Source: Candidatus Zhuqueibacterota bacterium (GTDB taxonomy: Bacteria; Zhuqueibacterota; Zhuqueibacteria; Oceanimicrobiales; Oceanimicrobiaceae). From it: a DNA stretch of 64,000 bases. Both the position numbers and the translations under genes were made by a program. Shown one piece after another: positions 1-64,000 of this stretch (the stretch's first letter is position 1; every line of letters begins with the position of its first letter). The stretch is taken from NCBI GenBank assembly GCA_029261995.1, contig JAJDAF010000050.1, positions 215,152 through 279,151 on the forward strand. Direction: 5' to 3'. Under the pieces are notes generated by a model that did no database searches, was not told the DNA's origin, and saw only the letters and a program-made list of their open reading frames with translations.

Positions 1-2
1 TG

Positions 3-602
3 GAGGCGATCTCGCACTATCGCGATGTGGACTTATTCCTGACCGAAGCGCACCGTGTGCTGAAAAAAGGTGGCGTTGTCATTGTTTCGGATGGCAACAA
101 CGGTGCAAATCCATCGGTTCGCAGCAAAACCTATGAAATCTGGGATCGATTCGAGAATGGGCCGGTGGCGGATTCAGTACACGGTCATCGCATTGAGCGA
201 ACCTACGTGGACATGCGCAAAGAAATCATTGCAACGAATTTCCCAAAGATTTCCAGCAACGAAGTTAATGAACTCGCGGCAAGAACTTTCGGATTGGGCG
301 ACCAGAAAATCATAGAGGTGGTCCGGCAGTATCTTGATGGCGGTGAGAAGCCAAACAGCAAGTTCAAGATTGGCGTGCCAGCCTTCAATCCGCAAAAAAA
401 CGACTATATCGAGCGGCTGTTCGACCCGCGCGATCTGGCGCAGCAAATGGAAGAGATCGGCTTCAAGGCGACGCCCTACGCCCATTTTGGCGGCGCAGGA
501 GAAAAAGGCCTGAAGGGCAAAGCCAATGCTGTTCTGCGGGCAATCTCTCCAATCTCCTTGCTTGCTGCCCCAACGTTTAAGTTGGTCGGGGTGAAGCGCT
601 AG
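3..602 (+). CDS. class I SAM-dependent methyltransferase, 5'-truncated by the window edge
   Basis: Frame is open from the window start: EAISHYRDVDLFLTEAHRVLKKGGVVIVSD matches the 'H..D....L.E..RVLKxGG' motif of Methyltransf_11/25 enzymes. The SAM-binding motif I lies upstream of the window. Confidence 0.75.
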   Translation, partial: EAISHYRDVDLFLTEAHRVLKKGGVVIVSDGNNGANPSVRSKTYEIWDRFENGPVADSVHGHRIERTYVDMRKEIIATNFPKISSNEVNELAARTFGLGDQKIIEVVRQYLDGGEKPNSKFKIGVPAFNPQKNDYIERLFDPRDLAQQMEEIGFKATPYAHFGGAGEKGLKGKANAVLRAISPISLLAAPTFKLVGVKR

Positions 603-722: not shown

Positions 723-2690
723 ATGACATCTAAAGAAAACTTGTTTGGCAACATACTTAAGACGCTGAGCTGGGGCCTGCTTGCAGGACTGCTCTGGGGC
801 CTCTATGAGGCAAGCGTGCTGCTTCTGACGCAATATCGCGCATTGATTGGCCAGGACGCCAGTGGCATCTGGAATCTCTACTCAGCGGCCCTTTTGAATT
901 ATGGATTCTTCGGGCTGGTACTCGGCGGCGCCTCGTGCGCATACCTGACAGCCACGTGGTTGACCTTCAAGAAAACACGAGAAGACTTTGCTGCCGGCCG
1001 CTACTTTGTGTTGAGCATAGCCGTTCTGGTAATGGTGCTGTGGGCGGGAGTTTATGCAAACCGCTACCCGTTGGCGCGCATTCCGCTTTCACATCCCTTC
1101 TCGATTGGGGCAAGCCTGGCGATCATCGTGGCAGGGTTTGCGCTCCTTCAGATTTTGTACAGGACGGTAGGAGGGCGCAGCTCAAGTCCCCAAACGGGCC
1201 TCCTGAATTTAAAAACTGTCGGCAAAATGTTGGCGCCGCCGGTGGTGGTTCTGCTGGGTGGTCTGATTCTGCACAGCTTTAGCAGTCAAGAAACGGCCAC
1301 GGCCGAGACTGACCTGACTACCTCCGCTGGAAGCACAGTTGTTTCGCACCCAGATGCCGGAAACCTGGATGCTCCTCCGAACATCATTTTGATCACAGCC
1401 GAAACCCTGCGGGCCGACCACCTGCCGCTGTACGGTTACGACAAGCCGTTGAAGACGCCAAACATCGAAAAACTGGCCCAACAGGGTGTAACGTTCGAGA
1501 ACTATTTCACCAATTCCTCCTGGACAAGGGCATCGGTCACGTCGATCATGACCTCTTTGTTCCCGCAGCAGCACGGGGCCACGGGCCTGCACGTGACGCT
1601 GATGGACAGCGTCTTGACCCTGCCGAAAATTCTGGAGGCCCATGGTTACCACTCGGCTGCATTTCTCACCAACGTCAATTCTGTTTCAAAGGGCTTTGCG
1701 TTTTCCGAAGTCTACTATGATGAAATGATCGAAGCGTTCCGGAATCCGCTGGCGGTCTCGCCATTTTCACTCAAGCCATTCCTGGTACGGCGTCTGCTCG
1801 GAACGGAGAATCAGTTGTCTCAGGATTTCCCCTTCGTATTTCCGACGGAGTTTGTCAACGATTGGTACCTGGATGCGGCAAACGTCAATTCGTTCATCCA
1901 GAAGTGGTTGGTCACAGCTCCGGAGAAGCCGTTGTTCCTCCAGATTCACTATCTGGATCCGCACGAGCCGTACCTGCGTCACCCCTACGAGGCTGTACAA
2001 TTCAATCTGAAATCGGGGTGGACCGTTGACTCAATTGTTGAGCTTTATGACCAGGAAATCGAGTATCTCGATTCTGAGTTGGGCCGACTACAGAAAATTC
2101 TCGCAGCAGCCGGAAGACTACAAAACAGCCTGTTCATTTTCACTTCGGACCATGGCGAGGAATTTCTTGACCATGGTGGTTGGGGGCATGGCAACCACCT
2201 CTATGATGAAACCTTGAGGGTACCCCTGGTCATGCGCTTTCCGGATGGCAAATGGGCAGGTTCGCGCGTGGCCAGTCCGACCTCGAGTGTTGACCTGGCG
2301 CCGACCATTGTTGAAGCCGCCGGAGTGGATGCACCGCCAGACTTTGAAGGCCACAGCCTGACGCCGGTGATCACCGGAGCCGAGCAAGGTCATCGACTGA
2401 TCACTTCGCACCTTCTGGCGCCTTCGTTTGAAATGGCGTCTATCATGAAGGACGACATGAAGTTCATTTCCCGGACTGGACTCAATTCAGGCAAATATCT
2501 GTTCAACTTGGCGCAAGACCCAGGCGAACAGAAGAATCTGATTGAGCAGCACCCTGAGATCGCAGCCGAGCTTGAAGCCACACTTGCAATAGTCGATCAG
2601 AAGTTTAAGGCGGAGCAGCGTCAGGGCAAACAACTGAGCCTGACCGAAGAACAAAAGAAAAGATTGCGGGCGCTGGGCTACTTGAAGTAG
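723..2690 (+). CDS. membrane-anchored sulfatase-fold (alkaline phosphatase superfamily) hydrolase/transferase
   Basis: About 5 N-terminal hydrophobic helices, then NIILITAETLRADHL, SWTRASVTSIMTSLFPQQHG, HYLDPHEPY, YDQEIEYLD, FTSDHGEEFLDHGGWGHG, VDLAPTI; ends RLRALGYLK. ATG 723 preferred over GTG 696. Confidence 0.85.
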   Translation: MTSKENLFGNILKTLSWGLLAGLLWGLYEASVLLLTQYRALIGQDASGIWNLYSAALLNYGFFGLVLGGASCAYLTATWLTFKKTREDFAAGRYFVLSIAVLVMVLWAGVYANRYPLARIPLSHPFSIGASLAIIVAGFALLQILYRTVGGRSSSPQTGLLNLKTVGKMLAPPVVVLLGGLILHSFSSQETATAETDLTTSAGSTVVSHPDAGNLDAPPNIILITAETLRADHLPLYGYDKPLKTPNIEKLAQQGVTFENYFTNSSWTRASVTSIMTSLFPQQHGATGLHVTLMDSVLTLPKILEAHGYHSAAFLTNVNSVSKGFAFSEVYYDEMIEAFRNPLAVSPFSLKPFLVRRLLGTENQLSQDFPFVFPTEFVNDWYLDAANVNSFIQKWLVTAPEKPLFLQIHYLDPHEPYLRHPYEAVQFNLKSGWTVDSIVELYDQEIEYLDSELGRLQKILAAAGRLQNSLFIFTSDHGEEFLDHGGWGHGNHLYDETLRVPLVMRFPDGKWAGSRVASPTSSVDLAPTIVEAAGVDAPPDFEGHSLTPVITGAEQGHRLITSHLLAPSFEMASIMKDDMKFISRTGLNSGKYLFNLAQDPGEQKNLIEQHPEIAAELEATLAIVDQKFKAEQRQGKQLSLTEEQKKRLRALGYLK

Positions 2691-2823: not shown

Positions 2824-4635
2824 ATGGAACGGAGATGGAGAACTCAATGGATGACAGCGTGCAGCGCCGCGCTTCTGCTAGCCGCAAGCCTGACGCCGCT
2901 AACAACCGTGGTTGCTCAAGGCAAACACCCCTACCCCAGAATTGGGACATTCCACTTCTTCCGCGGCCAGGTACCGCCTGATTGGCATGCCCGAATGGAC
3001 CTTGTGGATATCAACAAAACCGACCCGGATATTCCGCGGGCGATCAAACGAAAAAATCCAAAAACCGTGGTGTTTTCAACAAGCGGTTGGACGGTCTGGA
3101 ACAGCAATAATCCGATTTCTGACACGGATATCAGCTTTCCGTCCGAGTGGTTTGCTCGTCGTGCTGATGGCTCGCCAATCGAGTTCGCTGGTAAGAAATT
3201 TCTGATCAATCTTTCAAATCACTGCCCGAAAGTCGATGGCAAGCGCTACAATGAACTGCTGCCAGACGTGCTCATTGACCGCGTAGATCTAACCGCGTTT
3301 GACGGCATTGCCAGCGACTGGCTCTGGCGCAAGCCGCATAACCAAACCGACATCGATCTCGACAACAACGGCCGCAACGATTACGACGAACACGGCAACG
3401 CTTGGGTTGAAGCGGAGTGGCGTGCCGGCGTGGAAACTCTGCTGCAGATTCTGCGCGGCAAGATGCCGCCCAATCGTTACGTCCTCGTCAACTCCGGACT
3501 GTTCCACCAGTATGGTTGGAACACCACCAACGGCCTGATTCTCGAAAACTACCGTGGCGTGCGCGGTTGGAACGGTTTCGAACGCAATTACTTCGGCTGG
3601 AGCGATACTTCACTGGAGCCGCGCATGATGATTTTCGACGTCATGCCGTCGCCAAAGGACCCGCGTATCAATGGCGAGCCGAAGGATTACTACACACACA
3701 TGCGCTTCATGCTGACCATCACACTCTTGGGAGAGGGCTATTTCAGCTATTCTGATTTTGAGGCCAGGGCGCTGCACCATTTCGACAAGTACTACGATGA
3801 ATATGATGTCGAGCTTGGCTGGGACCGCACCGGGCCACAAAAGTTGACCAATGGCTGCTGGGTTCGATTTTTCGATAAAGGCGTCTCCATCACCAATCCA
3901 TCTACTTCGACGACCAGGGTCAGTGATGGCGACTTGCGTGGTTTAAACGGCTACAACGGGCCTTACTACCGTTTTCTTGGGGGTCAGGATTCGCAGGTTA
4001 ACAACGGCCAGCAGTTCGATGGCATCGAGCTTTTTGGTGGCAAATTGGACGACGGCCTGATTGTCGGGGATGGCATCATTTTGTTGACCGAGCGCAAAAC
4101 CGTCATCGCGGATATCGTGGTGGACCAGCAAAACGCCGAGACCTCGCCCGGAAGCAAAAATGCGGACCTGCAGGGCGGCTGGACGGAAACCAATGATGTT
4201 GAAGACCCCTACAGTTTTCGCCAGGCCAAACACAACGGCTTATTTGGCGTCGCCTTTGCCAGTCCTGGCAGTGGCGGCAGCAAGGCGATCTATACTCCTG
4301 AAATTGGCATCGCCGGGGAGTACGACGTTTATGAGTGGCATGGCAAGCTCGAGGGGTTCAATATGGCGACCAACGTGCCGGTCAAAATCACCATTAACGG
4401 AGATGTGAAATTTAACCAGCGCATCGACCAGTCGCGCCAGTCCGGAAGCTGGAACCATCTCGGCAAATTCAGTTTTCCGGTTGGCGCTCGTTCTCGCATC
4501 GAGCTTTCAAATGACGCCAACGGTATGGTGGTAGCGGATGCCTTCAAGCTGGTTTCCGTGACTTCAGAGCAACCCGACAGAGATGTGACGGCGCCCACAA
4601 CGCCTTCCGGAGTGCGTGTCTCGAATGGCAATTAG
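2824..4635 (+). CDS. secreted putative glycoside hydrolase (GHL15-like) with golvesin/Xly-like C-terminal beta domain
   Basis: AGGAGG RBS at about 2813 and a signal peptide (MERRWRTQWMTACSAALLLAASLTPLTTVVAQ). Motifs FDGIASD, NGLILEN, MRFMLTITLLGEGYF, YYDEYDVELG, WVRFFDKGVSITNP resemble the GHL15 family. C-terminal YTPEIGIAGEYDVYEW...IDQSRQSGSWNHLGKFSF...VVADAFKL is golvesin-like. Assigned from recalled motifs. Confidence 0.65.
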   Translation: MERRWRTQWMTACSAALLLAASLTPLTTVVAQGKHPYPRIGTFHFFRGQVPPDWHARMDLVDINKTDPDIPRAIKRKNPKTVVFSTSGWTVWNSNNPISDTDISFPSEWFARRADGSPIEFAGKKFLINLSNHCPKVDGKRYNELLPDVLIDRVDLTAFDGIASDWLWRKPHNQTDIDLDNNGRNDYDEHGNAWVEAEWRAGVETLLQILRGKMPPNRYVLVNSGLFHQYGWNTTNGLILENYRGVRGWNGFERNYFGWSDTSLEPRMMIFDVMPSPKDPRINGEPKDYYTHMRFMLTITLLGEGYFSYSDFEARALHHFDKYYDEYDVELGWDRTGPQKLTNGCWVRFFDKGVSITNPSTSTTRVSDGDLRGLNGYNGPYYRFLGGQDSQVNNGQQFDGIELFGGKLDDGLIVGDGIILLTERKTVIADIVVDQQNAETSPGSKNADLQGGWTETNDVEDPYSFRQAKHNGLFGVAFASPGSGGSKAIYTPEIGIAGEYDVYEWHGKLEGFNMATNVPVKITINGDVKFNQRIDQSRQSGSWNHLGKFSFPVGARSRIELSNDANGMVVADAFKLVSVTSEQPDRDVTAPTTPSGVRVSNGN

Positions 4636-4696: not shown

Positions 4697-6613
4697 ATGC
4701 AGCAAGATAATACAAGTTTTGGCGCCTGGGTGAAGGCATTTTCCCGCAGCGCACTGTGGGCTGGTGGAATTGTTGGCGGGCTGGAGGCTCTGATTGTCGT
4801 GTCTCGAATCCTCAGCAGCAATGCTGTCGAGCTGGCGCTGCTTCTGCAAATTGTGATTTTTGTAAGTTTCGCGATAGCGCTGTTTGCGGGGCTCTTGCTC
4901 ATCTTCAATCTCATCTTCCTGCCCGTGCTCTATTTGCCGCTGAAGATGGTTGTCTCTCGATTTCAGAAGATCGGGCCATCGCAATTGAGTTGGGTGCTCA
5001 ATTTTCTTACAGCGACCTTTTTCTGTTTCCTGTTCTGGGCACACTACAATTCCGGCCGCTCGCTGCTCTCTGGCAAATCACTGCTTTATTCGGGTTTGGC
5101 GTTTGTCGGTGCTTTGGTCCTGGCGGAAATCGCAGCCCGACTCATGCATGGAGCTTCTGACAAACTCAAGTTGTGGCGCAAAGGAAAGCCAAGACCTTTT
5201 GTGGTTGTCTGGCTTCTGGTTCTCGGCGTGGCGCTGTTCATGAACTCGAATGGCATGGCTGGCGTTAGAAGCGCCAAGCCGAATGTGCTCTTGCTTATCA
5301 TCGATACACTGCGGGCTGACCGGCTCGGTTGCTACGGCTATGACAAGCCCACCTCGCCATCCATCGACCGGGTGGCCAGTGAAAGCGTGCTTTTTGAACA
5401 AGCTTACGTGTCGTGGGCCTCGTCTTTGCCGTCGCATTCGTCCATCATGACCTCCATGCAGCCCTACCACCACGGCGCTTTTCCAAACGGGAAATCTCTG
5501 AACGCCAAGCTTTTGACGCTGCCGAAGATTCTGCACGAGTACGGGTATAAGAATGCGGGCTTTGTTTCGAATACACTGGTTGGCAATCAGTACAATTTTG
5601 AGCTTGGGTACGACACTTTCACCGACCTGACCAAGTTTGACTACCACGACACCAGTTGGCAAATGTGGGTACGCACACTCGATACGATTCGGTTGTTCGA
5701 CAAAATCACTGACCGTGATTTGTTCACCGATTTGGCGCTTTCGTGGATTGAAAAACATCGCCACCGACCCTTCTTTCTCTGGGGGCAATGGCTACAGCCG
5801 CATGCACCGTACGAGCCGCCGGCCAGGCATCTGGCCAAATTCGAAGAGAGTTATTCCGGAATCGCCGACGGTAGCCTCAAGCAGATTTTCGACATCCGGC
5901 AGGGTAACGTGACCTTGAGTGATTCCGACCAACAACACTATTCTGCGCTTTACGATGGCGAGGTTGCTTGGTCAGACGAGCAAATCGGCGCCGTGTATGA
6001 TAAGCTGACCGAACTCGAGTTGCTCGAGAACTCGATCGTCATTATTACTTCTGACCACGGCGAAAACATGTTGGAACACGGACTGGAATATGGCCACGCC
6101 GGGGTCAACGAATCGAGCGTGCGGATCCCTTTGCTCGTACGACTGCCGGGCGGTAAGCGGATGCAGTTGGCACACGTCGTGCAGAGCATCGACATCGCCC
6201 CGACTGTACTCGACCTTCTGGACATCCCCATGCCTGACCAGTTTCACGGCAGGAGCGTTGTCCCACTGGTCGAGGGGCAGAAGGTAGAGTGGCCGAACGA
6301 AGCGTTCAGTGTCGGGTTTTGGAAGAAGCGCAATTTTTTCGGTCTGCGCAATGGGGATTGGAAGCTGATTCTGGATGTGCGGCAGCAAAATCAGACCTGG
6401 GCGCTATACCATCTACCCACAGACCCGCACGAGCGAAAGAATCGTTACGAAACTGAGCCCGGGACGGCGACCAAGATGAAGCACGCCATGGAGATTTGGC
6501 TTGCGAACGAGTTTGAGAATCTCGATCTCGTATACAAGCCCGGCGGTTTTTTTGAAGAAGATTTTGATGAAAAGACAATTCAGCGGCTGCGAACGCTTGG
6601 ATACATCAAGTAA
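4697..6613 (+). CDS. membrane-anchored sulfatase-fold hydrolase/transferase
   Basis: About 5 N-terminal TM segments; NVLLLIIDTLRADRLGCYG, SSLPSHSSIMTS, PHAPYEPP, YDGEVAWSD, ITSDHGE, SIDIAPTVLD; ends RLRTLGYIK. Confidence 0.88.
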   Translation: MQQDNTSFGAWVKAFSRSALWAGGIVGGLEALIVVSRILSSNAVELALLLQIVIFVSFAIALFAGLLLIFNLIFLPVLYLPLKMVVSRFQKIGPSQLSWVLNFLTATFFCFLFWAHYNSGRSLLSGKSLLYSGLAFVGALVLAEIAARLMHGASDKLKLWRKGKPRPFVVVWLLVLGVALFMNSNGMAGVRSAKPNVLLLIIDTLRADRLGCYGYDKPTSPSIDRVASESVLFEQAYVSWASSLPSHSSIMTSMQPYHHGAFPNGKSLNAKLLTLPKILHEYGYKNAGFVSNTLVGNQYNFELGYDTFTDLTKFDYHDTSWQMWVRTLDTIRLFDKITDRDLFTDLALSWIEKHRHRPFFLWGQWLQPHAPYEPPARHLAKFEESYSGIADGSLKQIFDIRQGNVTLSDSDQQHYSALYDGEVAWSDEQIGAVYDKLTELELLENSIVIITSDHGENMLEHGLEYGHAGVNESSVRIPLLVRLPGGKRMQLAHVVQSIDIAPTVLDLLDIPMPDQFHGRSVVPLVEGQKVEWPNEAFSVGFWKKRNFFGLRNGDWKLILDVRQQNQTWALYHLPTDPHERKNRYETEPGTATKMKHAMEIWLANEFENLDLVYKPGGFFEEDFDEKTIQRLRTLGYIK

Positions 6614-13326: not shown

Positions 13327-13715
13327 GGAAGCAATCCAGTCTCTTCACAATTGTTGGTGCTTTTGTTCTTGTCTTTTCTTTCAGTTCAACCGTTCAGAGT
13401 CAAGTTGCTTTGTTGGAGGATGGCCAGAACGCTCTTGGCCTGGGCGGGAGTTTGTACTACGACTTTGACGGTGCGGGAGGGTTTTCCGGGACTTTTTCTG
13501 CGCTGCTGCTTGATCGTCTGGATTTCAGTGTGACGCAAGGCAGGTTATATCCAAATTCAGAAGATTTCGTCGATTCGGTGTTGTCCCAGAGTTTCGATGT
13601 CCTGATCGGGACGCAAAACGACGACCGCAAACTCGTCTTTCTTGAACTTGGTGCGTCTCGTACCGAGGGCGACTTCAGCGGCTCGGTCTCGGCGGGTATG
13701 GTAATATCTTTCTGA
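13323..13715 (+). CDS. small secreted hypothetical protein, possibly outer-membrane beta-strand protein
   Basis: ATGA overlap with the upstream stop; signal peptide; alternating hydrophobic beta-strand pattern; terminal Phe (GMVISF). Confidence 0.55.
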   Translation: MRKQSSLFTIVGAFVLVFSFSSTVQSQVALLEDGQNALGLGGSLYYDFDGAGGFSGTFSALLLDRLDFSVTQGRLYPNSEDFVDSVLSQSFDVLIGTQNDDRKLVFLELGASRTEGDFSGSVSAGMVISF

Positions 13716-18320: not shown

Positions 18321-18506
18321 ATGGCAAAGGTAAAACTTGAGAACGAACTATTTGACCGCGTCAAGAAATTTGCGGAGGTGGCTGGCTATTCGTCGGCTGA
18401 GGAGTTCATCGCTCACATTCTGGAGAAGGAGCTTTCATCGGTAGACGAAACAGATAGCGACGATGAGATCAAAAAGCGTTTGCAGGGTCTCGGTTATTTG
18501 TCCTAG
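18321..18506 (+). CDS. 61-aa hypothetical protein, CopG/ribbon-helix-helix-like N-terminus plus RLxxLGY C-terminal motif
   Basis: AAGGAG RBS at 18308-18313. Sequence MAKVKLENELFDRVKKFAEVAGYSSAEEFIAHILEKEL...DDEIKKRLQGLGYLS. Confidence 0.8.
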   Translation: MAKVKLENELFDRVKKFAEVAGYSSAEEFIAHILEKELSSVDETDSDDEIKKRLQGLGYLS

Positions 18507-22153: not shown

Positions 22154-22216
22154 ACTGGAATCTGAATGATTGGCTGTTCCGGACTCCGGGACAGCCACTT
22201 TTACAACGGAAACCCT

Positions 22217-35751: not shown

Positions 35752-35788
35752 CCGCGCGAGGGTGCGCCTGCTCTCGCGCGGATTTTTT
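35752..35788 (+). terminator. Rho-independent terminator
   Basis: Stem CCGCGCGAG (35752-35760) / CTCGCGCGG (35773-35781) followed by ATTTTTT, 24 nt after the 35728 stop. Confidence 0.75.
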
Positions 35789-43385: not shown

Positions 43386-43416
43386 GCCTCCCGGCGACGC
43401 TGGGAGGCTTTCTTTC
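43386..43416 (+). terminator. Rho-independent terminator
   Basis: Stem GCCTCCC (43386-43392) / GGGAGGC (43402-43408) followed by TTTCTTTC. Confidence 0.65.
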
Positions 43417-56700: not shown

Positions 56701-59700
56701 GCATCCTTAGCGGCGGTTCTCTGGGGACACTCGCGCAAGCGGGTAGTCAGATCGTGGAAGTCCAATTTACGCCTTCGGCGACCGGTATCAGGAATGCGAC
56801 CCTGCACATCGAAAGCAACGATCCCGACGAGAATCCTTTCGATGTTTCGTTGGCAGGCACTGGGCTGGCGACGCCTGGGCCGAACTTGGTGGTGACGCCA
56901 GTCGGCCATGACTTTGGCCTTATCCAGACTGGCAGCAGCGCCTCCACGAGTTTCGATGTTCACAACAACGGCACCACCGATTTGGATGTGACTCTGGTGA
57001 CAATTGCGGGACTGGACGCTCCCGACTTCAGTCTTGACGGAACAACCACCAGCTTTATGCTGATTCCCGGGCAGACCCGGTCTTTGGGCACCAGTTTTAG
57101 TCCGGCGGCCACCGGAGCCAAGAGTGCCAACCTCCTTTTTGTCAGCAATGACCCGGATACGGATTCGCTGCTGGTTCCGTTGTCAGGAACAGCGTTCGAC
57201 GGCAGTGGAGGCAGTGGTCAGGTAGCGCATGAAGAAACTCAAACCGGTAGCGCGCTCAGCGCGGCCTCAGTCGCAACCGGTCTGCCGCTAGTTGCGCGCA
57301 CCGGGGATATCTACGTTGCTGCCATTGCCCTGCGTCGCGTAGTCGATGTCACTGCAGTTGACGGACTCGGGCTCAACTGGTCCCGGGTTCAGCAACAGTG
57401 CGCTGCGCGTGGACAGACCAGCGTTGAAGTCTGGATCGGACAGGGCGTGCCGACTACGTCTGAATCCGTCACCGCGACCTTCGCATCGTCGGTCACCAGC
57501 GCTTCCATTGCGGTCGCCAGGTACTCTGGCGCTGATTTAAACACTCCCATCGGCAACATTGCGAATGGCAACTCGCTTGGGCTTGCAGGTGCCTGCAGCG
57601 GTGGCACGGATTCTCCTGCATACAGTTTTAATTTGACAACGACAACCACTGGCAGTGTTGTGTTTGGCGCCGCCACGCTACGCAATCGTTCGCATACTTC
57701 CGGAGCGGGGTACATTGAGCGTGCCGAATTGGAATCTGGTACGGGTGGCGATGCCACGACTTTGGCGGTGCAAGATCAAAGCGTGACCATTCCGGGCAGC
57801 ATCGCCCTGAATGGGGCCTTTAGCAGCTCCGTGGATTGGGCGGTAGTTGGCTTTGAGTTGCGGCCCGGGAGTACTGGCCCGGACATCGCGCTATCCCCTG
57901 AGACTCACGATTTCGGCTCTGTGGTGCAGGGATCGAACGCTGAGCAGACCTTCAAAATCAGAAACCAGGGTGGAGAGAATCTGAATATCTCACAAATCCA
58001 GGTGACGGGCACGGATTCCACGGCGTTTGTAATCTTCGCCAGCGATGGCACGCCAACTCTCGCTGCTGGTGATAGCCACGAGGTGATTGTCCGGTTTACG
58101 CCCACCGTTTTCGCGACCATGACCGCGAATCTGAGCATCTTGAGCAACGACAGCGATGAATCACCGTTTGTTGCGCCGCTGTCGGGAACCGGGGTAGCAC
58201 CGCCGGCGCCGGACATCGCTGCAACACCGGCTTCAATCGATTTCGGGGATTTGCTTGAGGGGTTGACCACTTCATCTACCATCATATTGCGCAACATGGG
58301 CAGCGCCGACCTGAGTGTCTCGAGCTTGGCTATCAGCGGTGTGGACAGTGCGGAGTTTTCGATCATTGGCGGGGGACCGCCGTTCATTCTCAATCCTGAC
58401 TCGTCACGTGTGGTCGAGGTCGGTTTCTCACCAGCAACTGCTGGCGCCAAAACGGCGACTCTGAATATTGCCAGCAATGACCCGGATGAGAATCCTTTCG
58501 CTATTCCGTTGGCTGGAAATGGCTTGCCGGCCGTGCCAGACATTGCTCTAATCCCGGATACTCTCGGCTTCGGAGACTTAATTGCAGGACTCAGCAGCCA
58601 GCTTTCCCTTCAGGTGCGGAATGTCGGAGATCTCGATCTTTCTGTGTCATCTACGACGCTTGTGGGTGCGCAGGCTGGCGAGTTTGGTATTGCAAGTGGT
58701 GGAGGAGCTTTCGTGCTCAACCCGGATTCATCTCGCACCCTGACACTCAGCTTCAATCCTGACTCGGCTGGCGCCAAGAACGCCACGCTGCAATTCGCCA
58801 GCAACGACCCGGATGAGAATCCAGCACCGGCGGTTTTGCTCGGCAACGGTCTGCCGGCTTTTCCTGACATCTTTGTGAGCAAGGATACGCTCGACTTTGG
58901 CCAGGTTTTGACCGGAACGACCGGCTTGGTCGATTTCGAAGTCCGCAATAACGGTGTAGCTGACCTGAATGTCAATCCGCTGGGACTGCTTGGAGCAGAC
59001 ATAGCCGATTTCAGCGTCTTTTCCGGAGATGGCCCATTTGTTCTGAAACCAGACTCAAGCCGAATCATCCAAATGCAATTCGCGCCTGTTTCTGCTGGTC
59101 CGAAACAAGCGACGGTGCAAATCGTTAGCGACGATCCTGATGAGAATCCAACCGTGCAGACTCTGCTGGCGAATGCCATTCTGGCCGTTCCAGATATCGC
59201 CAACCTGCCGGATTCTCTCGATTTCGGCAGCCTGCTCGAGGGCACAACATCGACACAGCTTCTGGAGATTCAGAACACCGGCGTGGTCGCCTTGGATGTG
59301 ACAGTGGTCACTCTGACCGGGCCGGACGCTGGCGAGTTTGGCATCGTGGCCGGAGGTGGACCCTTTGTTCTGCAGCCTGATTCCAGCCGAATGCTGACCG
59401 TGCAGTTTGCGCCTGACTCGGCCGGCGCAAAAACCGCCTTTGTCCATCTTGAAAGTAATGATCCTGACGAGAGTCCGCGTGACATTCCGCTGCATGGAAC
59501 GGGTGTGCCTGCGCAGCCAAATCTCGCTTTGTCGCCCGATTCGGTGCAATATGGGGATGTTGTTTTTGGGGCCACCGTTTCTCGAACCATCGAAGTGCGG
59601 AACACCGGCGTTATCGATCTGGATGTCTTCTCCCTGGGGATTCGCGGGGCGACGGCGGAACACTTCAAAATGCCGGATAGCTCCGGATTTGTCTTGAATC

Positions 59701-62700
59701 CTGATTCGACGCGGCTGGTCGAAGTCCGTTTTACCGCATCGACGCTTGGGTTGAAGTTGGCATTTTTGCAGATTGTCAGCAACGATCCCGATCAAGGCGT
59801 CTTTGATGTGCCTCTTTCGGCCAACAGCGTGCCGCTTGCAGAACCTGAGATTGATGTCGCCCGTTCCAGCCTGGAGTTCGGCGGAGTGAAGGTAGGGGAC
59901 TCCAACGTCGGGTTTGTCACGGTTGAGAATCTCGGAACCGCGGATTTGCAGGTTAGCTCGTTGGCGCTGAACGGACCTGAATCCGGGGATTATCAGTTGT
60001 TGAGCGCACCATTCACGGTCTTGCCTGGCGATACTCATGACGTTGACATTCAGTTTTCACCATCGACGCCTGACTTGAGGAACGCAACGCTGCAAATTTT
60101 CAGCAACGATGCCGACGAAAGTCTGGTCGAAGTACAATTGAGCGGCGTCGGTTTGACTGGCTCTACCGGTGGCGGCGATGTCGTGTTTGAGTCCACTCAC
60201 AATGGAGCGACGGTCAACGCGACTTCCGTCGCGACAACCGAACCCGTACCGGGCGCTGCAGGTCAACTTTATCTTGCTGCTATTTCCATGCGCCGGCCGA
60301 CAGACGTCACGGGCGTAAGTGGTATGGGTTTGACCTGGGTACGCCTCCATGCCCAGTGTACAGGACGTGGACAAACGGGCCTCGAAGTCTGGCATGCAAT
60401 CGGCACAGGAAGCGGCGGGCCAGTCACCGCGACCCTCACAACCACCGTTGCAAGCGCTGTAATCAATGTGACGCGGTATTCTGGTATTGACGAGAACAGT
60501 CCGTTCGGCAATCTTGTTTTTGGAAACTCGAATGGCCCGGATGGCGCATGTTCAGGAGGCACGGATGGGGACGCATACAACTTTGATATCGCCACGACCG
60601 CGGATGGCGCCATAATCTACGGTGCCGCTGCTCTGCGCAACAAGCGCCACACGCCGGGCAACGGCTATGTTGAAAGGGACGAGGCATTTGCCGGTAGCGG
60701 CGGCGATATGGCCACTGTGGCCATCGAGGATCAGAGTGTGGCAGTTGCCTCCACACGGCCTTTGGACGGTGCGTTCAGTAAGGCCGTGGACTGGGCAGTC
60801 ATTGGCGTCGAAATCCGTCCCGGTGGCGGCGCGGCGCCGGATATCGTGGTCTCGCCGGTTTCACACGACTTTGGATCTATTGTACTCGGAAACACCAGTG
60901 CGCAGACTTTCCAGGTGCTGAATCTCGGCACCGTCGATCTCAATGTCAGCGCAACCACGTTGGAAGGAATCGATGCGAGCAGCTTTCAGTTTACGACTGG
61001 CCAGGGCGCGTTTGTTCTTCCGTCTGGTGTCAGTCGCAACATCGAGGTGCAATTTGCACCGGCCAGCTCTGGCACGAAGACTGGCGCACTTCGGCTGGTT
61101 AGTGATGATCCAGACGTAGCACAACTGGACATCCCGCTCTTCGGCACGGCGTTGGCTCCGGATATTCTGGCGCTGGCTGACACTTTGGATTTCGCTGTGG
61201 TGGTTGTTGGTAGCACCGGGAACAGGACCGCATCTCTGCGCAATGTTGGGACGTCACCACTGCAAGTATCTGCCGCTTTTCTGGTAGGGCCCGATTCCGC
61301 AAATTTCGCAATTGCCGGTGGCGCCGGTGCTTTTACGCTGCAACCGGACTCGACGAAAAACATCGCGATTCATTTTGCTCCAACAAGCTCCGGCCTGAAA
61401 CAAGCGACACTGCGGATTGCCAGCGACGATCCGGACGAAAATTATCTTGATATCACTCTGTTCGGCAGCGGATTGGATCCAATCCCGGACATTGCGGCTT
61501 CGCCTGTGGCGCTGGATTTCGGAAGCCAGTTTGTCGGTCAGGCAGCCACTTTGAGCGTCATTATTCAAAATCTGGGAGTAGTGGATCTCAGCGTAAGCAG
61601 CGCAACTATGGAAGGCGCCAATCCCTCTGAATTTGGAATAGTGAATGGCGGCGGCCCTTTTGTGTTAAGCCCCGATTCCAGCCGCGTCGTGGAGGTGCAG
61701 TTCTCGCCGACAGTTACCAGCGCCAGCACGGCCGCGTTGCGGTTGATGAGCAACGATCCGGACGAGAGCCCATTTGACGTTTCTGTTTCGGGAGTCGGCT
61801 TGCCCGCGTTGCCTGATATCAACACGGATATTGCCACAGTCGACTATGGCTCTCTCCTCGTTGGAGTTAGCAGTCTGCGAACAATCGTCTTGAGCAACGC
61901 AGGTGTTGTCAATCTGGAGGTTACAGCTACGGAAGTGATTGGTCCGGATAGCCTGGATTTTTCGATCACCTCTGGAGCAGGTGGCTTCACGCTGGCGCCC
62001 GATTCCAGCCGCACACTGGGCCTGATATTTGTGCCCGGCGCGTCCGGGTTGCGCCAGGCGACCTTGCGCGTCCAAAGCAACGACCCAGATGAGAATCCAT
62101 TTGATATCCCGCTTCAGGGTGGCGGAATTGCCGCAATCCCGGACATCGCGAGTTTGCCGGTGGCACTTGATTTCGGTGATGTGGTCGAGCAAACTACCAG
62201 TGCTCGAAACCTTGTGTTGTCGAATGCGGGCGTCGTAGACCTGGAAATCTCTGCTTTGCAGATTGTCGGAGTCGATCCGACCTTGTTTGCGATTACTGCT
62301 GGCGCTGGCCCGTTTACCCTCAATCCGGATTCAAGCCGGACGATTGAGATCTCGTTTACGCCGGATGGGGTTGGCGCCAAAAACGCAGTTCTACGGGTCA
62401 GCAGTAATGATCCCGATGAGAATCCGTTTGACGTGCCGCTCACGGGTAACGGCGTGCTACCTGACCAGCCTGATATCGCGGTCAGTCCCGCCAGTCTGGA
62501 TTTTGGCAACATCACGCAAGGCTCGAGCAGCGGTCTCTCACTGTTGGTTCGCAATGATGGCACGGCCGACTTGAATGTGAGTTCTCTTCAGATCACGGGG
62601 GCCGGCGCAGGTCAGTTTAGCGTAGCAGGCGCAGGTTTTGTTCTGGCTCCGAATACAAGTCAGTCCCTCGATATCGGCTTTACTCCCAGTTCAATTGGAA

Positions 62701-64000
62701 GCAAGAATGCCATAATGCAAATCACCAGCGATGATCCAGATGAGAACCCTTTTGAGACCACGTTGGCCGGATTCGGCCTGTCCGCGCCGATTGGCGGCGG
62801 CGATGTTGTGTTTGAAGAATCGCAAAGCGGTGGCGCCGTAAGTGCAACTTCCGTAGCCACTACGACACCTGTAGCAGGGGTGAACGACCATCTTTATCTT
62901 GCTGCTATTTCCTTCAGACCACCAGTGGCTGTCACTTCAGTTTCAGGACTTGGCTTGGTGTGGACCCGCGTCCAGGCGCAGTGTTCCGGGCGTGGGCAGA
63001 CCGGAGTCGAAGTCTGGAGCGCGATTGGGGTCAGCACAGGCACCGGTGTTGTCACCGCAGATTTTGCTAGCACGGTCAGCAGTGGCGTCATCTCGGTGAC
63101 GCGCTATTCCGGCGCAGATCCATCTAACCCGATTGGCGATGTCGTCTTCGGAAACACGCAAGGAATAAGTGGGGCTTGTTCCGGTGGAACGGACTCTCCT
63201 GCCTATCAGTTTAGCCTCAACACCTCCGTGGACGGCGCTGTCGTTTACGGAGCGTCCGCGCTGCGAAATCGTGACCATTTCCCGGGTGCAGCCTATACAG
63301 AGCGAGATGAAGCATCCGCCGGCAGCGGCGGAAGCACAGCAGGTGTAGCTGTCCAGGAGCAGACCGTTGCTTCTGCTGGTAGCGTCGTCTTTGACGGCTC
63401 CTTCAACAATAATGTAGATTGGGCGATTGCCGGCCTGGAAATACGCCCGGGAGCTGGAGGCGACCAGCCAGATATTGCCGCGTCGCCATCCAGTCACAAT
63501 TTTGGCGATGTCGTGGTTGGAGCGAACACGTCACATGTCTTCCAGATTCTGAACGCCGGCACGGCAGATCTCGCGGTCAGCACCACGGCTCTGACCGGCA
63601 CGGACTCGGCGGATTTTCAATTCTTGAGTGGTAACGGCACGTTCATACTCCCCTCCGGCCTGACCCGCGATATCGAAGTCGATTTTGCGCCAGGCAGCGG
63701 TGGTACAAAAAATGCCAGACTTCGGATCGAAAGCAACGACCCCAATGATAACCCGGTTGAAATCGACTTGTTGGGGAACGGCGTCGCTGTGCCGGAACCG
63801 GATATCACCGTAGGTCCGTTGTCGCACGACTATGGCAGCCTTTTTGTGGGCCAGAGCGCCACCCGTGGATTTGTGGTTAGAAATGACGGCACCGCCAATC
63901 TGGAAGTGACTTCGACTATGATCAGCGGTCTGGACGCGGCGGAATTCGCCGTGTCAGGCGGAGGCGGAACCTTTATGCTGGCTCCAGGTGACAGCCAGAC
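53766..64000 (+). CDS. giant secreted protein, >3411 aa, 3'-truncated: metallophosphoesterase, PKD-like, Calx-beta, B-repeat, two Big_9-like, DNRLRE, at least 17 choice-of-anchor D (ASH/Hydin-like) repeats, three copies of an unrecognised ~217-aa domain
   Basis: Not in the ORF track (no stop in window). GAGGGAG RBS, ATG 53766, MRQVRYNSEMWIASVVVLCLSLGGSTSVLAQ. Hand translation of the first ~900 nt and many later segments stays in one frame to ...GGTFMLAPGDSQ at 64000. Head motifs TGDIPY, VHVGDL, PGDNEW, FGHAG, GDRH. Confidence 0.9.
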   Translation, partial: MRQVRYNSEMWIASVVVLCLSLGGSTSVLAQGEPITFSVTGDIPYGTNEVPTMAEQIAKHNLYSPSDFFVHVGDLNAGSESCKESRYIEVAEMLKTLAVPAYVIPGDNEWVDCSNPDQAWNWWTSSFYDFEDNFCGVPIVERQDVRPENFAFMLKGVLFVGINIPAGRQGGTLEADRLQDDADWVDFQFTDKVSQVRAAVVFGHAGNSGNRGAFFTQFQVSARNFVKPVLYVMGDRHSWKVTDPWMEPNMMKIVVNRGGLEDPVQLTAGMGSDNSIWEIVRNPLSGSPQLFNREPCVEAGSDQIISQSDILNLSGNASDDGVPNNPVNFELTWSKASGPGTVSFNDVHSLSTTATFSAPGNYMVRLTGNDGGLQGTDEMLVTVESEGPVLTVSDPFVTEGNSGTTSLVFTVEVVNADGSPVTVHYQTADSTAQAGLDYTAISGDLTFSGGTTTRTVAVAVIGETDFEPDELVQLRLSNATGAPIGKNVGLGTIENDDQPQQFTLDISVQGIGNMAPSPGPNLYIEDSQVIVSASQTQGDWAFDHWQGDLTGSANPDTILMDSDKNIIAVFVFNNPPTASNDSYAVNEDGNLQITAPGLLLNDSDVDGDAVVVADVQTPAHGSVTFSRDGAFGYTPTPDFFGQDTMLYIVHDGKGKQDTANALIDVLPSNDLPVGVADVYAGDPNQTVVVAAPGVLTNDIDVDGDLLSAQLQTTTSSGTLNFLADGSFTYVPDNGFTGTDEFTYLALDSQGPSTLTTVEVAIGLPTIFTFNPLEDGQVRDTSPDQNYGADATLRIRDGSPLYSSFLKFNLSGIGAVISAKLRLYVTDPGPNGGAVALTSNNFVGTSTPWDEDLLNWGNAPVINGTLSSLGEVFADTWVEFDVTSGVSGPGIYSFGVQPASTNSVIFSSKEGTHSPQLIVEAFPSGGGSLPDITLLPASHDFGGVNIDSSRARLFEIRNDGTADLLITNITLQGVDVIDFGILSGGSLGTLAQAGSQIVEVQFTPSATGIRNATLHIESNDPDENPFDVSLAGTGLATPGPNLVVTPVGHDFGLIQTGSSASTSFDVHNNGTTDLDVTLVTIAGLDAPDFSLDGTTTSFMLIPGQTRSLGTSFSPAATGAKSANLLFVSNDPDTDSLLVPLSGTAFDGSGGSGQVAHEETQTGSALSAASVATGLPLVARTGDIYVAAIALRRVVDVTAVDGLGLNWSRVQQQCAARGQTSVEVWIGQGVPTTSESVTATFASSVTSASIAVARYSGADLNTPIGNIANGNSLGLAGACSGGTDSPAYSFNLTTTTTGSVVFGAATLRNRSHTSGAGYIERAELESGTGGDATTLAVQDQSVTIPGSIALNGAFSSSVDWAVVGFELRPGSTGPDIALSPETHDFGSVVQGSNAEQTFKIRNQGGENLNISQIQVTGTDSTAFVIFASDGTPTLAAGDSHEVIVRFTPTVFATMTANLSILSNDSDESPFVAPLSGTGVAPPAPDIAATPASIDFGDLLEGLTTSSTIILRNMGSADLSVSSLAISGVDSAEFSIIGGGPPFILNPDSSRVVEVGFSPATAGAKTATLNIASNDPDENPFAIPLAGNGLPAVPDIALIPDTLGFGDLIAGLSSQLSLQVRNVGDLDLSVSSTTLVGAQAGEFGIASGGGAFVLNPDSSRTLTLSFNPDSAGAKNATLQFASNDPDENPAPAVLLGNGLPAFPDIFVSKDTLDFGQVLTGTTGLVDFEVRNNGVADLNVNPLGLLGADIADFSVFSGDGPFVLKPDSSRIIQMQFAPVSAGPKQATVQIVSDDPDENPTVQTLLANAILAVPDIANLPDSLDFGSLLEGTTSTQLLEIQNTGVVALDVTVVTLTGPDAGEFGIVAGGGPFVLQPDSSRMLTVQFAPDSAGAKTAFVHLESNDPDESPRDIPLHGTGVPAQPNLALSPDSVQYGDVVFGATVSRTIEVRNTGVIDLDVFSLGIRGATAEHFKMPDSSGFVLNPDSTRLVEVRFTASTLGLKLAFLQIVSNDPDQGVFDVPLSANSVPLAEPEIDVARSSLEFGGVKVGDSNVGFVTVENLGTADLQVSSLALNGPESGDYQLLSAPFTVLPGDTHDVDIQFSPSTPDLRNATLQIFSNDADESLVEVQLSGVGLTGSTGGGDVVFESTHNGATVNATSVATTEPVPGAAGQLYLAAISMRRPTDVTGVSGMGLTWVRLHAQCTGRGQTGLEVWHAIGTGSGGPVTATLTTTVASAVINVTRYSGIDENSPFGNLVFGNSNGPDGACSGGTDGDAYNFDIATTADGAIIYGAAALRNKRHTPGNGYVERDEAFAGSGGDMATVAIEDQSVAVASTRPLDGAFSKAVDWAVIGVEIRPGGGAAPDIVVSPVSHDFGSIVLGNTSAQTFQVLNLGTVDLNVSATTLEGIDASSFQFTTGQGAFVLPSGVSRNIEVQFAPASSGTKTGALRLVSDDPDVAQLDIPLFGTALAPDILALADTLDFAVVVVGSTGNRTASLRNVGTSPLQVSAAFLVGPDSANFAIAGGAGAFTLQPDSTKNIAIHFAPTSSGLKQATLRIASDDPDENYLDITLFGSGLDPIPDIAASPVALDFGSQFVGQAATLSVIIQNLGVVDLSVSSATMEGANPSEFGIVNGGGPFVLSPDSSRVVEVQFSPTVTSASTAALRLMSNDPDESPFDVSVSGVGLPALPDINTDIATVDYGSLLVGVSSLRTIVLSNAGVVNLEVTATEVIGPDSLDFSITSGAGGFTLAPDSSRTLGLIFVPGASGLRQATLRVQSNDPDENPFDIPLQGGGIAAIPDIASLPVALDFGDVVEQTTSARNLVLSNAGVVDLEISALQIVGVDPTLFAITAGAGPFTLNPDSSRTIEISFTPDGVGAKNAVLRVSSNDPDENPFDVPLTGNGVLPDQPDIAVSPASLDFGNITQGSSSGLSLLVRNDGTADLNVSSLQITGAGAGQFSVAGAGFVLAPNTSQSLDIGFTPSSIGSKNAIMQITSDDPDENPFETTLAGFGLSAPIGGGDVVFEESQSGGAVSATSVATTTPVAGVNDHLYLAAISFRPPVAVTSVSGLGLVWTRVQAQCSGRGQTGVEVWSAIGVSTGTGVVTADFASTVSSGVISVTRYSGADPSNPIGDVVFGNTQGISGACSGGTDSPAYQFSLNTSVDGAVVYGASALRNRDHFPGAAYTERDEASAGSGGSTAGVAVQEQTVASAGSVVFDGSFNNNVDWAIAGLEIRPGAGGDQPDIAASPSSHNFGDVVVGANTSHVFQILNAGTADLAVSTTALTGTDSADFQFLSGNGTFILPSGLTRDIEVDFAPGSGGTKNARLRIESNDPNDNPVEIDLLGNGVAVPEPDITVGPLSHDYGSLFVGQSATRGFVVRNDGTANLEVTSTMISGLDAAEFAVSGGGGTFMLAPGDSQ
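56550..64000 (+). repeat. coding tandem repeats: 16 complete plus 1 partial ~109-aa (~327-nt) choice-of-anchor D/ASH-like domains
   Basis: Units begin P(D/N/E)I/L...(D/G/E/Q/N)(F/Y)G and contain S(N/D)D(P/S/A)(D/N). Approximate starts: 56550, 56880, 57880, 58208, 58535, 58863, 59190, 59517, 59843, 60837, 61157, 61485, 61812, 62138, 62468, 63467, 63797. Confidence 0.85.
57219..63452 (+). repeat. three dispersed copies of a ~217-aa domain (57219-57869, 60177-60824, 62802-63452)
   Basis: Shared motifs Y(V/L)AAI, G(L/M)GL.W, QC..RGQT..EVW, RYSG, GACSGGTD..AY.F, DWA..G.E(L/I)RPG. Confidence 0.88.

Follow-up and report, generated by a model that had tools for sequence, protein, structure and literature searches.

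The 64,000-nucleotide window analysed here (contig JAJDAF010000050.1, from a Candidatus Zhuqueibacterota bacterium) carries the end of a surface-polysaccharide gene locus followed by five genes for giant secreted proteins; position 1 is its first letter, and all coordinates refer to it unless a locus name is given. It contains 26 genes, every one on the + strand, as are all long open reading frames (ORFs) of the gene chain. Several neighbours are tightly packed: g7 and g8 overlap by 4 nucleotides at 13323, g9 and g10 by 8 nucleotides at 16217, and g17 and g18 by 47 nucleotides at 24710, while g16 and g17 are spaced by 1 nucleotide at 24349 and g19 and g20 abut directly at 26644. An earlier note, made from the letters of this DNA, had described the shared orientation and these junctions, and its positions were exact on re-measurement. 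Its inventory was likewise borne out by Pfam and NCBIfam scans: synthesis of 3'-phosphoadenosine 5'-phosphosulfate (PAPS), five proteins of the alkaline phosphatase (AP) superfamily, glycosyltransferases, a deacetylase, a lyase-like and a hydrolase-like protein, and five giants. The glycan part of the window is made up of three blocks, one for periplasmic tailoring (g2-g8), one for sulfate (g9-g14) and one for side-branch formation or linking (g15-g20). Our overall reading, which we hold with middling confidence, is that the window is the tail of a Wzx/Wzy locus for a probably sulfated polysaccharide together with five associated giant cargo proteins of a type IX secretion system (T9SS), in an uncultured, KSB1/Calditrichota-like biofilm bacterium.

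The first gene of the window, g1 (3..602, +), is the 3' part of a gene for a 338-residue S-adenosylmethionine (SAM) methyltransferase; the fragment has weak Methyltransf_11/23 matches, and the full gene on the contig contains methyltransferase Pfam families. Exact protein matches put the window on an assembly contig of 117.8 kb and also on one of 370 kb; an exact 60-mer from the end of the window matched no genome contig. From g1 the contig was read upstream in 10-kb steps, about 161 kb of DNA being read overall, and the same-strand array was found to start about 53 kb before the window. At its 5' end lie genes for a STAS protein, Wza (PF02563, 227 residues) and Wzc (779 residues; Wzz, GNVR and AAA_31), followed by an epimerase and a priming glycosylphosphotransferase (TIGR03025, 413.6 bits against a cut-off of 295.55). 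The upstream array also encodes UDP-glucose dehydrogenase, two Wzx proteins (Polysacc_synt), one Wzy_C protein of the Wzy polymerase or ligase type, three further PMT_2 proteins, more than 12 glycosyltransferases, three asparagine-synthase-type amidotransferases with TIGR03108 as their best model, carAB, a GH39 protein and another methyltransferase besides g1. Every upstream glycan gene is on the + strand, and the housekeeping genes mreCD-pbp2-rodA precede them. This walk along one strand gives a glycan locus of about 81 kb, of which the window holds the last 28 kb; positions 1-28182 are the 3' third of a Wzx/Wzy surface-polysaccharide locus. Its make-up is Wzx/Wzy-dependent (group-1-like), with Wza and Wzc on the one hand and a priming transferase, Wzx and a Wzy-type protein on the other. 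The earlier note had proposed a dedicated surface-glycan pathway and had suggested looking for Wzx, Wzy and Wza in the flanking contig; genes of all three types were found upstream on the same strand, and together with Wzc and the priming transferase they bear the proposal out. The note's picture of a whole system held for gene content and not for extent, the locus starting well outside the window. Its placement of the DNA in a bacterium of the FCB (Fibrobacterota-Chlorobiota-Bacteroidota) type agrees with the T9SS cargo and with the nearest relatives, which are metagenome-assembled genomes (MAGs) labelled KSB1 or Calditrichaceae; the DNA sequencing runs are biofilm metagenomes.

Some genes of the upstream part stand apart from this core. 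The carA and carB genes (L004:3684-8047, upstream on the same contig) are inside the glycan locus, as are a gene for an FrhB-like iron-sulfur flavoprotein and, after it, one for a 611-residue orphan (L003:6628-10008). From carAB and the FrhB-like gene, carbamoylation or pyruvylation steps are possible. The 611-residue orphan belongs to no family and gave merely a marginal LarA match; sequence comparison rejected it as a paralogue of g5.

The sulfate block includes its own supply of activated sulfate. A SAM methyltransferase gene (g12, 19412..20284, +; PF08241, E 2.8e-22) is followed by genes for sulfate adenylyltransferase (Sat; g13, 20349..21512, +; NF003166, 569.5 bits, cut-off 387) and adenosine 5'-phosphosulfate (APS) kinase (CysC; g14, 21572..22153, +; NF002059, 263.6 bits, cut-off 244). 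An ATP sulfurylase and an APS kinase of its own are thus encoded within the glycan locus, as in nodPQ/nodH-like cassettes, and cysH is not labelled in the locus. The earlier note had suggested looking for sulfotransferases in the flanking contig; none of known family (PF00685, PF13469 and similar) was found in the approximately 161 kb read, and a hidden Markov model (HMM) built from eight module-linked sulfotransferases, described below, found nothing in six frames of this DNA at E<=10.

Next to the PAPS genes is a module of four genes. The first, g9 (13993..16224, +; PF01663, E 4e-29), encodes an AP-superfamily enzyme of the nucleotide pyrophosphatase/phosphodiesterase (NPP) clade with an AYIGPGAG membrane anchor, a predicted cytoplasm-facing domain and Ser142 at the nucleophile position. 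The second, g10 (16217..18199, +; PF01663, E 4e-39), is an NPP-clade paralogue of g9 (40% identity) and a periplasm-facing lipoprotein (lipobox FTG|C). Then come a gene called on the contig for a 61-residue protein with the C-terminus KKRLQGLGYLS (18321..18506, +) and g11 (18542..19363, +), which encodes a 273-residue membrane protein modelled as a helical bundle, an immunoglobulin (Ig)-like sandwich and a C-terminal transmembrane helix, with a predicted local distance difference test score (pLDDT) of 93.9. In an alignment of 33 g9 sequences, mean column identity was 59% across phyla and about 100 residues were invariant, among them D103, P143, D512-H513 and D663-H664; S142, which aligns with the sulfatase cysteine nucleophile, was nearly invariant (at least 90%). 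The g9 model (pLDDT 81.7) has an NPP-like core, and its best Foldseek matches were Xanthomonas NPP (7mw8/2gsn), ENPP1 and the phosphonoacetate hydrolase PhnA (1ei6), with E values of 1e-9 to 1e-7 and target TM-scores of 0.56-0.62. With this core fold, a serine nucleophile position and the bimetal ligands, g9 belongs to the NPP clade, and its family comprises 2,749 representative clusters at E<=1e-30. Neither g9 nor g10 matched a PDB sequence. The g11 model gave no whole-chain match in the PDB at E<=0.001 with Foldseek, its Ig-like insert alone matching weakly; a role for g11 as an Oxa1/EMC3/DUF106 insertase was rejected for lack of a structural match.

The module recurs widely. Relatives of g10 were present in 470 stretches of species-representative genomes, and 80 loci from such genomes were fetched with g10 and compared with all proteins of the window. 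The 61-residue gene was present in 67 of these 80 loci and g11 in 66, and the four genes g9, g10, the 61-residue gene and g11 stood together in about 66; the lineages include KSB1, Calditrichaceae, Aminicenantes, Planctomycetota, Eisenbacteria, Armatimonadota, Vicinamibacteria and others. In 17 of the 80 loci CysC was encoded within 10 kb, in 14-15 Sat was, and in 8 loci sat or cysC lay less than 100 nucleotides from an NPP-like gene. One operon (L065) has the order sat-NPP(459)-cysC-NPP(443)-NPP(748)-NPP(682)-61aa-g11like, and four other loci (L075, L036, L030 and L084) have close variants of it that are one or two members short. Pfam scans of the operon neighbours in L065, L036, L075 and L030 showed envelope-glycan genes and T9SS cargo and no classical sulfotransferase. 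In a KSB1 locus (L009:5156-7789), a single 877-residue protein fuses PUA_2, ATP sulfurylase and Phosphodiest (PF01663) domains and is followed by cysC and a 448-residue NPP-like gene; an 878-residue cluster-mate of this fusion occupies the same position in another locus (L016:14035-16671), where the adjacency of Sat to NPP was seen by tblastn. In 8 loci a sulfotransferase of 184-205 residues (PF13469/PF00685) lies beside the module, in most of the maps drawn directly behind the g11-like gene. By a rough inference, a given two-gene locus would by chance fall in a 20-kb stretch in well under 1% of genomes, so the association of the module with sat and cysC is real. A literature search for PF01663 together with sulfotransferase found nothing. 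As a separate observation, the L065 operon (L065:2935-13080) is self-contained and, like the similar ones, comes from a distant lineage; a 74-residue gene heads it and a PMT_2 GT-C gene lies just upstream.

The remaining three AP-superfamily proteins lie in the tailoring block. These are g2 (723..2690, +; PF00884, E 1.6e-50; nucleophile motif T-R-A-S-V), whose true start is the ATG at 723 rather than a GTG, g4 (4697..6613, +; PF00884, E 4.9e-50; motif S-L-P-S-H) and g6 (8569..10713, +; PF00884, E 8e-49; motif T-L-P-S-H). In each, a sulfatase-fold domain (PF00884 with SGSH_C) stands behind a multi-transmembrane N-terminus, and the catalytic domains of all three, like that of g7, are predicted by the positive-inside rule to be periplasmic. 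The PDB relatives of g4 are 5g2v, 6hhm and 5g2t. The motif C/S-x-P/A-x-R of type I (S1) formylglycine sulfatases is absent from all three proteins: alignment to solved sulfatases places Thr (g2), Ser (g4) and Thr (g6) at the formylglycine position, and the motif Arg is replaced by Val, His and His, respectively. When g2 and g6 were aligned with the 120 best listed g4 matches, g4 included, from a search of 5.8 billion proteins, Thr or Ser occupied the nucleophile position in 122 of 122 proteins and neither Cys nor Arg occurred at the motif positions in any; g4 orthologues have S/T..H at the nucleophile motif throughout. The metal-binding blocks DTLRAD and SDHGE are conserved in these aligned proteins, and the PF00884 matches are full-length (E about 1e-50). 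It looks, on these alignments, as if g2, g4 and g6 belong to an active Thr/Ser-type clade of the sulfatase fold, and the AP enzymes as a group look active from their conserved metal blocks and nucleophiles, in g9 also from its invariant residues and modelled NPP fold. The view that g2, g4 and g6 are true sulfatases editing the sulfation pattern was rejected because the formylglycine motif is absent.

Several smaller features of these proteins were seen. One g4 relative of 903 residues (P0094) has a Thr-type sulfatase-fold domain fused to a PMT_2 (ArnT-like GT-C) membrane domain, which would fit periplasmic action at a lipid-linked substrate. Tails of the type RLxxLGY occur in g2 (RLRALGYLK), g4, g6 and the 61-residue protein, and CysC has RLEELGYL near its C-terminus (22061-22153). 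One docking partner shared by all these tails would be hard to explain, because CysC and the 61-residue protein are cytoplasmic, and for the tails of the sulfatase-fold proteins the predicted location is the periplasm.

The other members of the tailoring block are secreted or membrane-anchored. A secreted GHL15-like protein with Golvesin_C and a signal-like N-terminus is encoded by g3 (2824..4635, +; PF14885, E 1.5e-10; PF25275, E 1.8e-19), the hydrolase-like protein of the earlier inventory. The secreted 600-residue protein of g5 (6664..8466, +) is an orphan, with no match in Pfam, NCBIfam or the PDB even when a profile of its family was used; only 41 clusters of that family were found among 5.8 billion proteins, and the S-layer homology (SLH) or dockerin domains of several members point to an extracellular role. 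The unrelated g3 and g5 proteins share similar C-terminal tails, D-V-T-A-P-T-T-P-S-G-V-R-V (4576-4635) and D-F-D-A-P-Q-V-P-V-G-V-K-V (8413-8466). The lyase-like protein, g7 (10759..13326, +; PF16889, Hepar_II_III_N, E 2.4e-48; PF07940, Hepar_II_III_C, E 9e-39), has a five-transmembrane anchor and a periplasmic heparinase II/III-like domain that scored 196 bits against the HepC model, far under its cut-off of 700, and is a candidate lyase or C5-epimerase; an Agl32-type epimerase was rejected for g7, the Agl32 fold being different (cellobiose-2-epimerase-like). The last member, g8 (13323..13715, +), is an ORF for a 130-residue secreted protein with a signal peptide, its start overlapping the g7 stop, and matched no family in the family scans. 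The likeness that the earlier note drew to the maturation of glycosaminoglycan or alginate stays an analogy only.

Sulfatases, a heparinase II/III, GHL15 and the upstream GH39 would by their family names alone resemble a polysaccharide utilisation locus, in which these enzymes break down glycosaminoglycan-like polymers of hosts or algae and the substrate is captured by the giants. We consider such a catabolic locus for sulfated glycans very improbable. There is neither a formylglycine motif nor a maturase; the enzymes are membrane-anchored and co-oriented within a biosynthetic operon among glycosyltransferases, Wzx/Wzy and PAPS synthesis; and gene calling in the parts read gave no SusC/SusD, transporter or sugar-catabolic genes. 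A utilisation locus was rejected on this biosynthetic context.

A harder alternative concerns what the AP-fold enzymes of a biosynthetic locus transfer. All five could resemble LtaS, EptA, OpgB or BcsG in being phosphodiesterases or transferases of phospho-substituents, which add or trim phosphoethanolamine, phosphoglycerol or similar groups; the PAPS would then go to another pathway or to a classical sulfotransferase that lies elsewhere and went unrecognised. A Thr/Ser nucleophile, a multi-transmembrane anchor and a periplasmic domain are the architecture of EptA and LtaS, NCBIfam models of EptA, CptA, LtaS and YejM match weakly, relatives such as P0094 have the sulfatase fold fused to a PMT_2 GT-C domain, the best structural matches of g9 are phosphodiesterases, and PAPS cannot reach the periplasm. 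The catalytic domains, however, match S1 sulfatases (E 1e-36 to 1e-20) far better than they match EptA or LtaS, and the proposal leaves the adjacency and fusion of NPP-like genes with sat and cysC across phyla unexplained. The fold is also known to be used for glycan sulfation: Agl30 and Agl31 of Halobacterium salinarum are sulfatase-like members of the AP superfamily required for N-glycan sulfation, and either one alone, expressed in Haloferax volcanii, led to sulfation of the host N-linked glycan (PMC11980604). We therefore regard the phospho-substituent proposal as rather unlikely.

The archaeal pair resembles the present enzymes in several ways. Agl30 and Agl31 are encoded inside a glycan gene cluster, as are the AP-superfamily genes here; one is membrane-bound and one soluble; the nearest solved structures, 5G2U and 6HHM, are among the PDB matches of g4; and methylation and uronic acids are found in the archaeal glycan too. 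The archaeal enzymes differ in acting on a dolichol-linked tetrasaccharide, whereas the sulfatase-fold domains here are predicted to be periplasmic. The text of that report mentions no PAPS, donor, nucleophile or active site (PMC11980604). With this precedent, sulfation by AP-fold enzymes is a reasonable reading, and it is probable, judged from the genes, that the surface polysaccharide is sulfated by unconventional phosphatase-fold enzymes. The sulfated polymer of the earlier note is supported by sat and cysC, by comparative genomics and by the published archaeal case; a recognisable sulfotransferase is the part that did not appear.

The third block ends the glycan locus. It comprises genes for a GT4 glycosyltransferase of the VimF family, XrtA-type stp2 (g15, 22166..23359, +; PF00534, E 1.7e-48; TIGR03088, 204 bits, under the cut-off), a PpgS-like GT2 polyprenyl-phosphate sugar synthase (g16, 23625..24347, +; PF00535; NF058614, E 1.7e-30, 106 bits against a cut-off of 370), its partner, a small DUF2304 membrane protein (g17, 24349..24756, +; PF10066, E 2.4e-26), a FemAB-family aminoacyl or acyl transferase of the VimA type (g18, 24710..25747, +; TIGR03019, 309.1 bits, cut-off 260.35), a polysaccharide deacetylase of carbohydrate esterase family 4 (CE4) with DUF3473, of the VimE type (g19, 25768..26643, +; PF01522 and PF11959; TIGR03006, 270.5 bits, just under the cut-off of 276.2) and, as the last gene of the glycan locus, a GT-C (PMT_2) glycosyltransferase acting in the periplasm, with about 10 transmembrane helices (g20, 26644..28182, +; PF13231, E 1.7e-9). 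In mycobacteria, PpgS (Rv3631), Rv3632 and a GT-C transferase form a polyprenyl-phospho-GalNAc route that places galactosamine on arabinogalactan. The genes here share with that route a polyprenyl-phosphate sugar synthase of family GT2, its small membrane partner of the DUF2304 type, a GT-C transferase and a deacetylation step; they differ in that the PpgS match is at family level only (106 bits against 370).

A closer parallel for g15, g18 and g19 is the Wbp/Vim system of Porphyromonas gingivalis and Tannerella forsythia (Veith et al. 2020, PMC7468200). There, VimA matches TIGR03019, WbpS is an asparagine-synthase-type amidotransferase matching TIGR03108, VimE is a CE4 protein and VimF a predicted glycosyltransferase, and together the Vim proteins and WbpS make the aminoacylated sugar that links T9SS cargo to anionic lipopolysaccharide (A-LPS) (PMC7468200). 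The present locus has the TIGR03019 transferase (VimA/g18), the CE4 deacetylase (VimE/g19), the glycosyltransferase partner (VimF/g15) and the amidotransferases (WbpS and the three upstream), and shares an anionic Wzx/Wzy glycan and cargo with a type-A C-terminal domain (CTD); a VimA-type transferase, a CE4 deacetylase and a GT4 protein thus stand near type-A CTD cargo genes. With regard to the Wbp route, the locus encodes UDP-glucose dehydrogenase, a GFO_IDH_MocA fusion weakly like UDP-GlcNAc 3-dehydrogenase and a hexapeptide acetyltransferase. It differs from the Wbp/Vim system in belonging to another phylum, in that its genes adjoin the cargo genes, in lacking a complete WbpA/B/E/D set among the genes seen, and in that its genes indicate Wza/Wzc export, where the Wbp/Vim system has A-LPS. 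The same marker families are known from extracellular polysaccharide (EPS) loci of the XrtA/PEP-CTERM type: TIGR03019, TIGR03006, TIGR03108 and TIGR03088 are the best matches of g18, g19, the upstream amidotransferases and g15. Three of the four markers are under the cut-off, however, g18 alone passing. No exosortase family was present among the called genes at 20-117 kb of the contig record or in the Pfam/NCBIfam scans of window genes. Membership of the XrtA/PEP-CTERM exosortase class was rejected, since the DNA read has no exosortase and the giants end in T9SS CTDs rather than PEP-CTERM.

Behind g20 come the five giants. The first, g21 (28373..35728, +), encodes a 2451-residue protein with a GDSL esterase domain, fn3, Big_1 repeats, He_PIG and a type-A CTD, and g22 (36077..43366, +) a 2429-residue paralogue (51% identity) that also ends in a CTD; the N-terminal GDSL/SGNH esterase domains of both have intact GDS, GxND and DxxH blocks. 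The proteins of g23 (43638..48074, +; 1478 residues; FG-GAP propeller, TIG, CBM96, cadherin-like repeats) and g24 (48252..53399, +; 1715 residues; FG-GAP propeller, four CBM96 modules at E 7e-113, InlB-B-like repeats) also have CTDs. For g25 (53766..64000, +), the window includes the first 3411 of 5016 residues (P0121), the CTD lying beyond it; its domains are PKD, Calx-beta, cadherin-like repeats, CBM96 and about 14 ASH/HYDIN-type Ig domains, and at 57219-63452 large stretches between the latter have no Pfam assignment. All five thus carry the type-A T9SS CTD (...NYPNPFN...) at the C-terminus. The earlier note had called them carbohydrate-binding, secreted and giant; size and secretion are confirmed, and CBM96 was detected in g23, g24 and g25 only. 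The founding member of CBM96 binds alginate, an anionic polyuronate (PMC9971899). The note's further suggestion that the giants form a scaffold is unproven; they are T9SS cargo with their own terminators. Strong intrinsic-terminator-like hairpins follow g21 (35752-35781) and g22 (43386-43408), with G+C-rich stems of 13 and 10 bp and T runs, and the gaps between giants are 177-366 nucleotides; no terminator was predicted between g20 and g21.

Whether the glycan genes and the giants belong together was approached through gene order in relatives. The closest relative is the MAG GCA_046757165.1, with 75% identity in g10 and 82% in g9. On one of its contigs, genes for NPP, a 63-residue and a 273-residue protein, methyltransferase, sat, cysC, GT4, GT2, DUF2304, FemAB, deacetylase and PMT_2 are followed by genes for a 2446-residue and then a 2437-residue GDSL giant; on another contig, GH39 and methyltransferase genes precede four sulfatase-fold genes with GHL15 and g5 set between them, and a heparinase-like gene completes the series up to the contig end. 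The gene order of this nearest relative is thus the same throughout, which links the two halves. In the KSB1 MAG OFTM72 (L011), PMT_2 is likewise followed by a homologue of the GDSL giants (59-62% identity), and in a third relative (L014) the order is module, sulfotransferase, GDSL giant. This last locus keeps the giant behind the module without the GT4-to-PMT_2 block, and the adjacency has therefore survived a rearrangement. The linkage of the halves in relatives, which the earlier note had made decisive for its proposal, is thus observed. A comparison of the GDSL-giant N-terminus with metagenome contigs was uninformative, giving just 29-46% GDSL-domain matches on soil contigs.

The halves might nonetheless be functionally unrelated, an EPS locus of the ordinary Wzx/Wzy kind that happens to precede an island of T9SS adhesin or esterase genes, with the synteny reflecting only recent common ancestry. 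The giants have their own terminators and long upstream gaps, the linkage was seen only in relatives with 69-75% identity in g10, FemAB and deacetylase genes belong to the usual content of EPS loci (PMC7468200), and no giant homologue was present in the 80 loci beyond the three relatives, though the DNA fetched for most loci would not show one. On the other side are the adjacency that outlived the loss of the GT4-to-PMT_2 block in L014, the Vim-type genes that abut cargo genes, CBM96 as a binder of anionic polysaccharides and the lack of a predicted terminator between g20 and g21. We judge an absence of any tie to be unlikely on balance, yet the most serious of the alternatives. Our own reading, that the giants are associated with the polysaccharide of the locus, has them probably displayed on the polymer or bound to it, as gene order and domain content suggest; we infer that the display is covalent or of a lectin type.

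For the system as a whole, the following sequence of steps is proposed. A uronate-rich repeat unit would be built on undecaprenyl phosphate and be methylated, amidated and sulfated, Sat and CysC supplying the PAPS and AP-fold enzymes adding the sulfate in place of a classical sulfotransferase. The candidate for sulfation at the cytoplasmic face is g9, because it is the only AP-fold enzyme of the window with its domain facing the cytoplasm, where PAPS is. The unit would then be flipped, polymerised and exported through Wza/Wzc, and the exported polymer may be tailored in the periplasm by the sulfatase-fold enzymes and g10 together with the GHL15-like protein, the orphan and the heparinase-like protein. 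The polyprenyl-phosphate route (g16, g17 and g20) would deliver a side sugar; g19 would deacetylate an amino sugar and g18 aminoacylate it to give a free amine, which could serve the T9SS sortase as attachment point for the giants' cleaved C-termini. Binding to the anionic polymer would fall to the CBM96 modules, and the GDSL domains could remove ester groups from it. A bolder version, which we offer as speculative and think improbable as it stands, is an inner-membrane-spanning pathway of sulfation made up of AP-fold enzymes throughout: the sulfuryl group of PAPS or APS would be accepted by g9, on its Ser or on polyprenyl-phosphate, g11 and the 61-residue protein would hold or pass it, and g10 and the sulfatase-fold enzymes would sulfate the exported polymer at distinct positions, the same polymer forming, via a Vim-type aminoacylated sugar, a covalent anchor for giant T9SS cargo outside Bacteroidota.

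A number of observations weigh against our overall reading. On the side of sulfation, the Pfam labels of all called genes in the DNA read include no canonical sulfotransferase, and one may lie elsewhere in the genome; four of the five AP enzymes, namely g10 and the three of sulfatase fold, have the periplasm as their predicted location, where there is no PAPS for them; L011 keeps the whole arrangement, yet has no sat or cysC in the 22 kb fetched; the Aminicenantes module sits among housekeeping-type rather than glycan genes; and the likeness of g2, g4 and g6 to Agl30 and Agl31 is one of description and shared structural neighbours. On the side of the giants, the complete Wbp set is not in the locus, where no DegT aminotransferase is labelled among the called genes; FemAB, deacetylase and amidotransferase genes are ordinary in exosortase-type EPS loci as well; the giants are separate transcription units, given their strong terminators and the gaps between them; and their link to the glycan genes is documented only in close relatives. 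What the analysis shows is gene content, motifs, predicted topology, synteny and the association with sat and cysC; sulfation, the identity of the sulfating enzyme, and the anchoring and manner of display of the giants are all read from these.

The system combines known kinds, a Wzx/Wzy locus for a sulfated EPS and Vim-type display of T9SS cargo, with an AP-fold sulfate module that is unconventional, recurs widely and is uncharacterised in bacteria. The sulfotransferases of the synechan (xss) locus of Synechocystis PCC 6803 are reportedly classical PAPS-dependent enzymes. Synechan is the nearest comparison on the polymer side, as another Wzx/Wzy-type EPS locus for a sulfated polymer, with biofilm or bloom formation; sulfotransferases are prominent in that report (PMC8205485), whereas the present locus has none and instead has five AP-fold enzymes and its own sat and cysC.

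In summary, few bacterial pathways for sulfated polysaccharides have been characterised, and those met in a literature search were mainly from cyanobacteria and Kiritimatiellae. The gene neighbourhoods described here point to a pairing of PAPS synthesis with AP-fold enzymes, rather than with classical sulfotransferases, in many uncultured phyla, among them KSB1, Calditrichota, Aminicenantes, Planctomycetota, Eisenbacteria and Armatimonadota. If AP-fold enzymes do sulfate glycans, sulfated matrices would be far more widespread than annotation indicates, and many metagenome genes annotated as 'sulfatase' or 'phosphodiesterase' would be biosynthetic. The Vim-type module beside giant cargo genes offers a concrete case for the tethering of T9SS cargo outside Bacteroidota. 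Because exosortase loci and, on our reading, T9SS anchoring draw on one set of acceptor-building enzymes, the locus also hints that FemAB-type aminoacylation of a deacetylated sugar may be a general way to ready a glycan for protein attachment.

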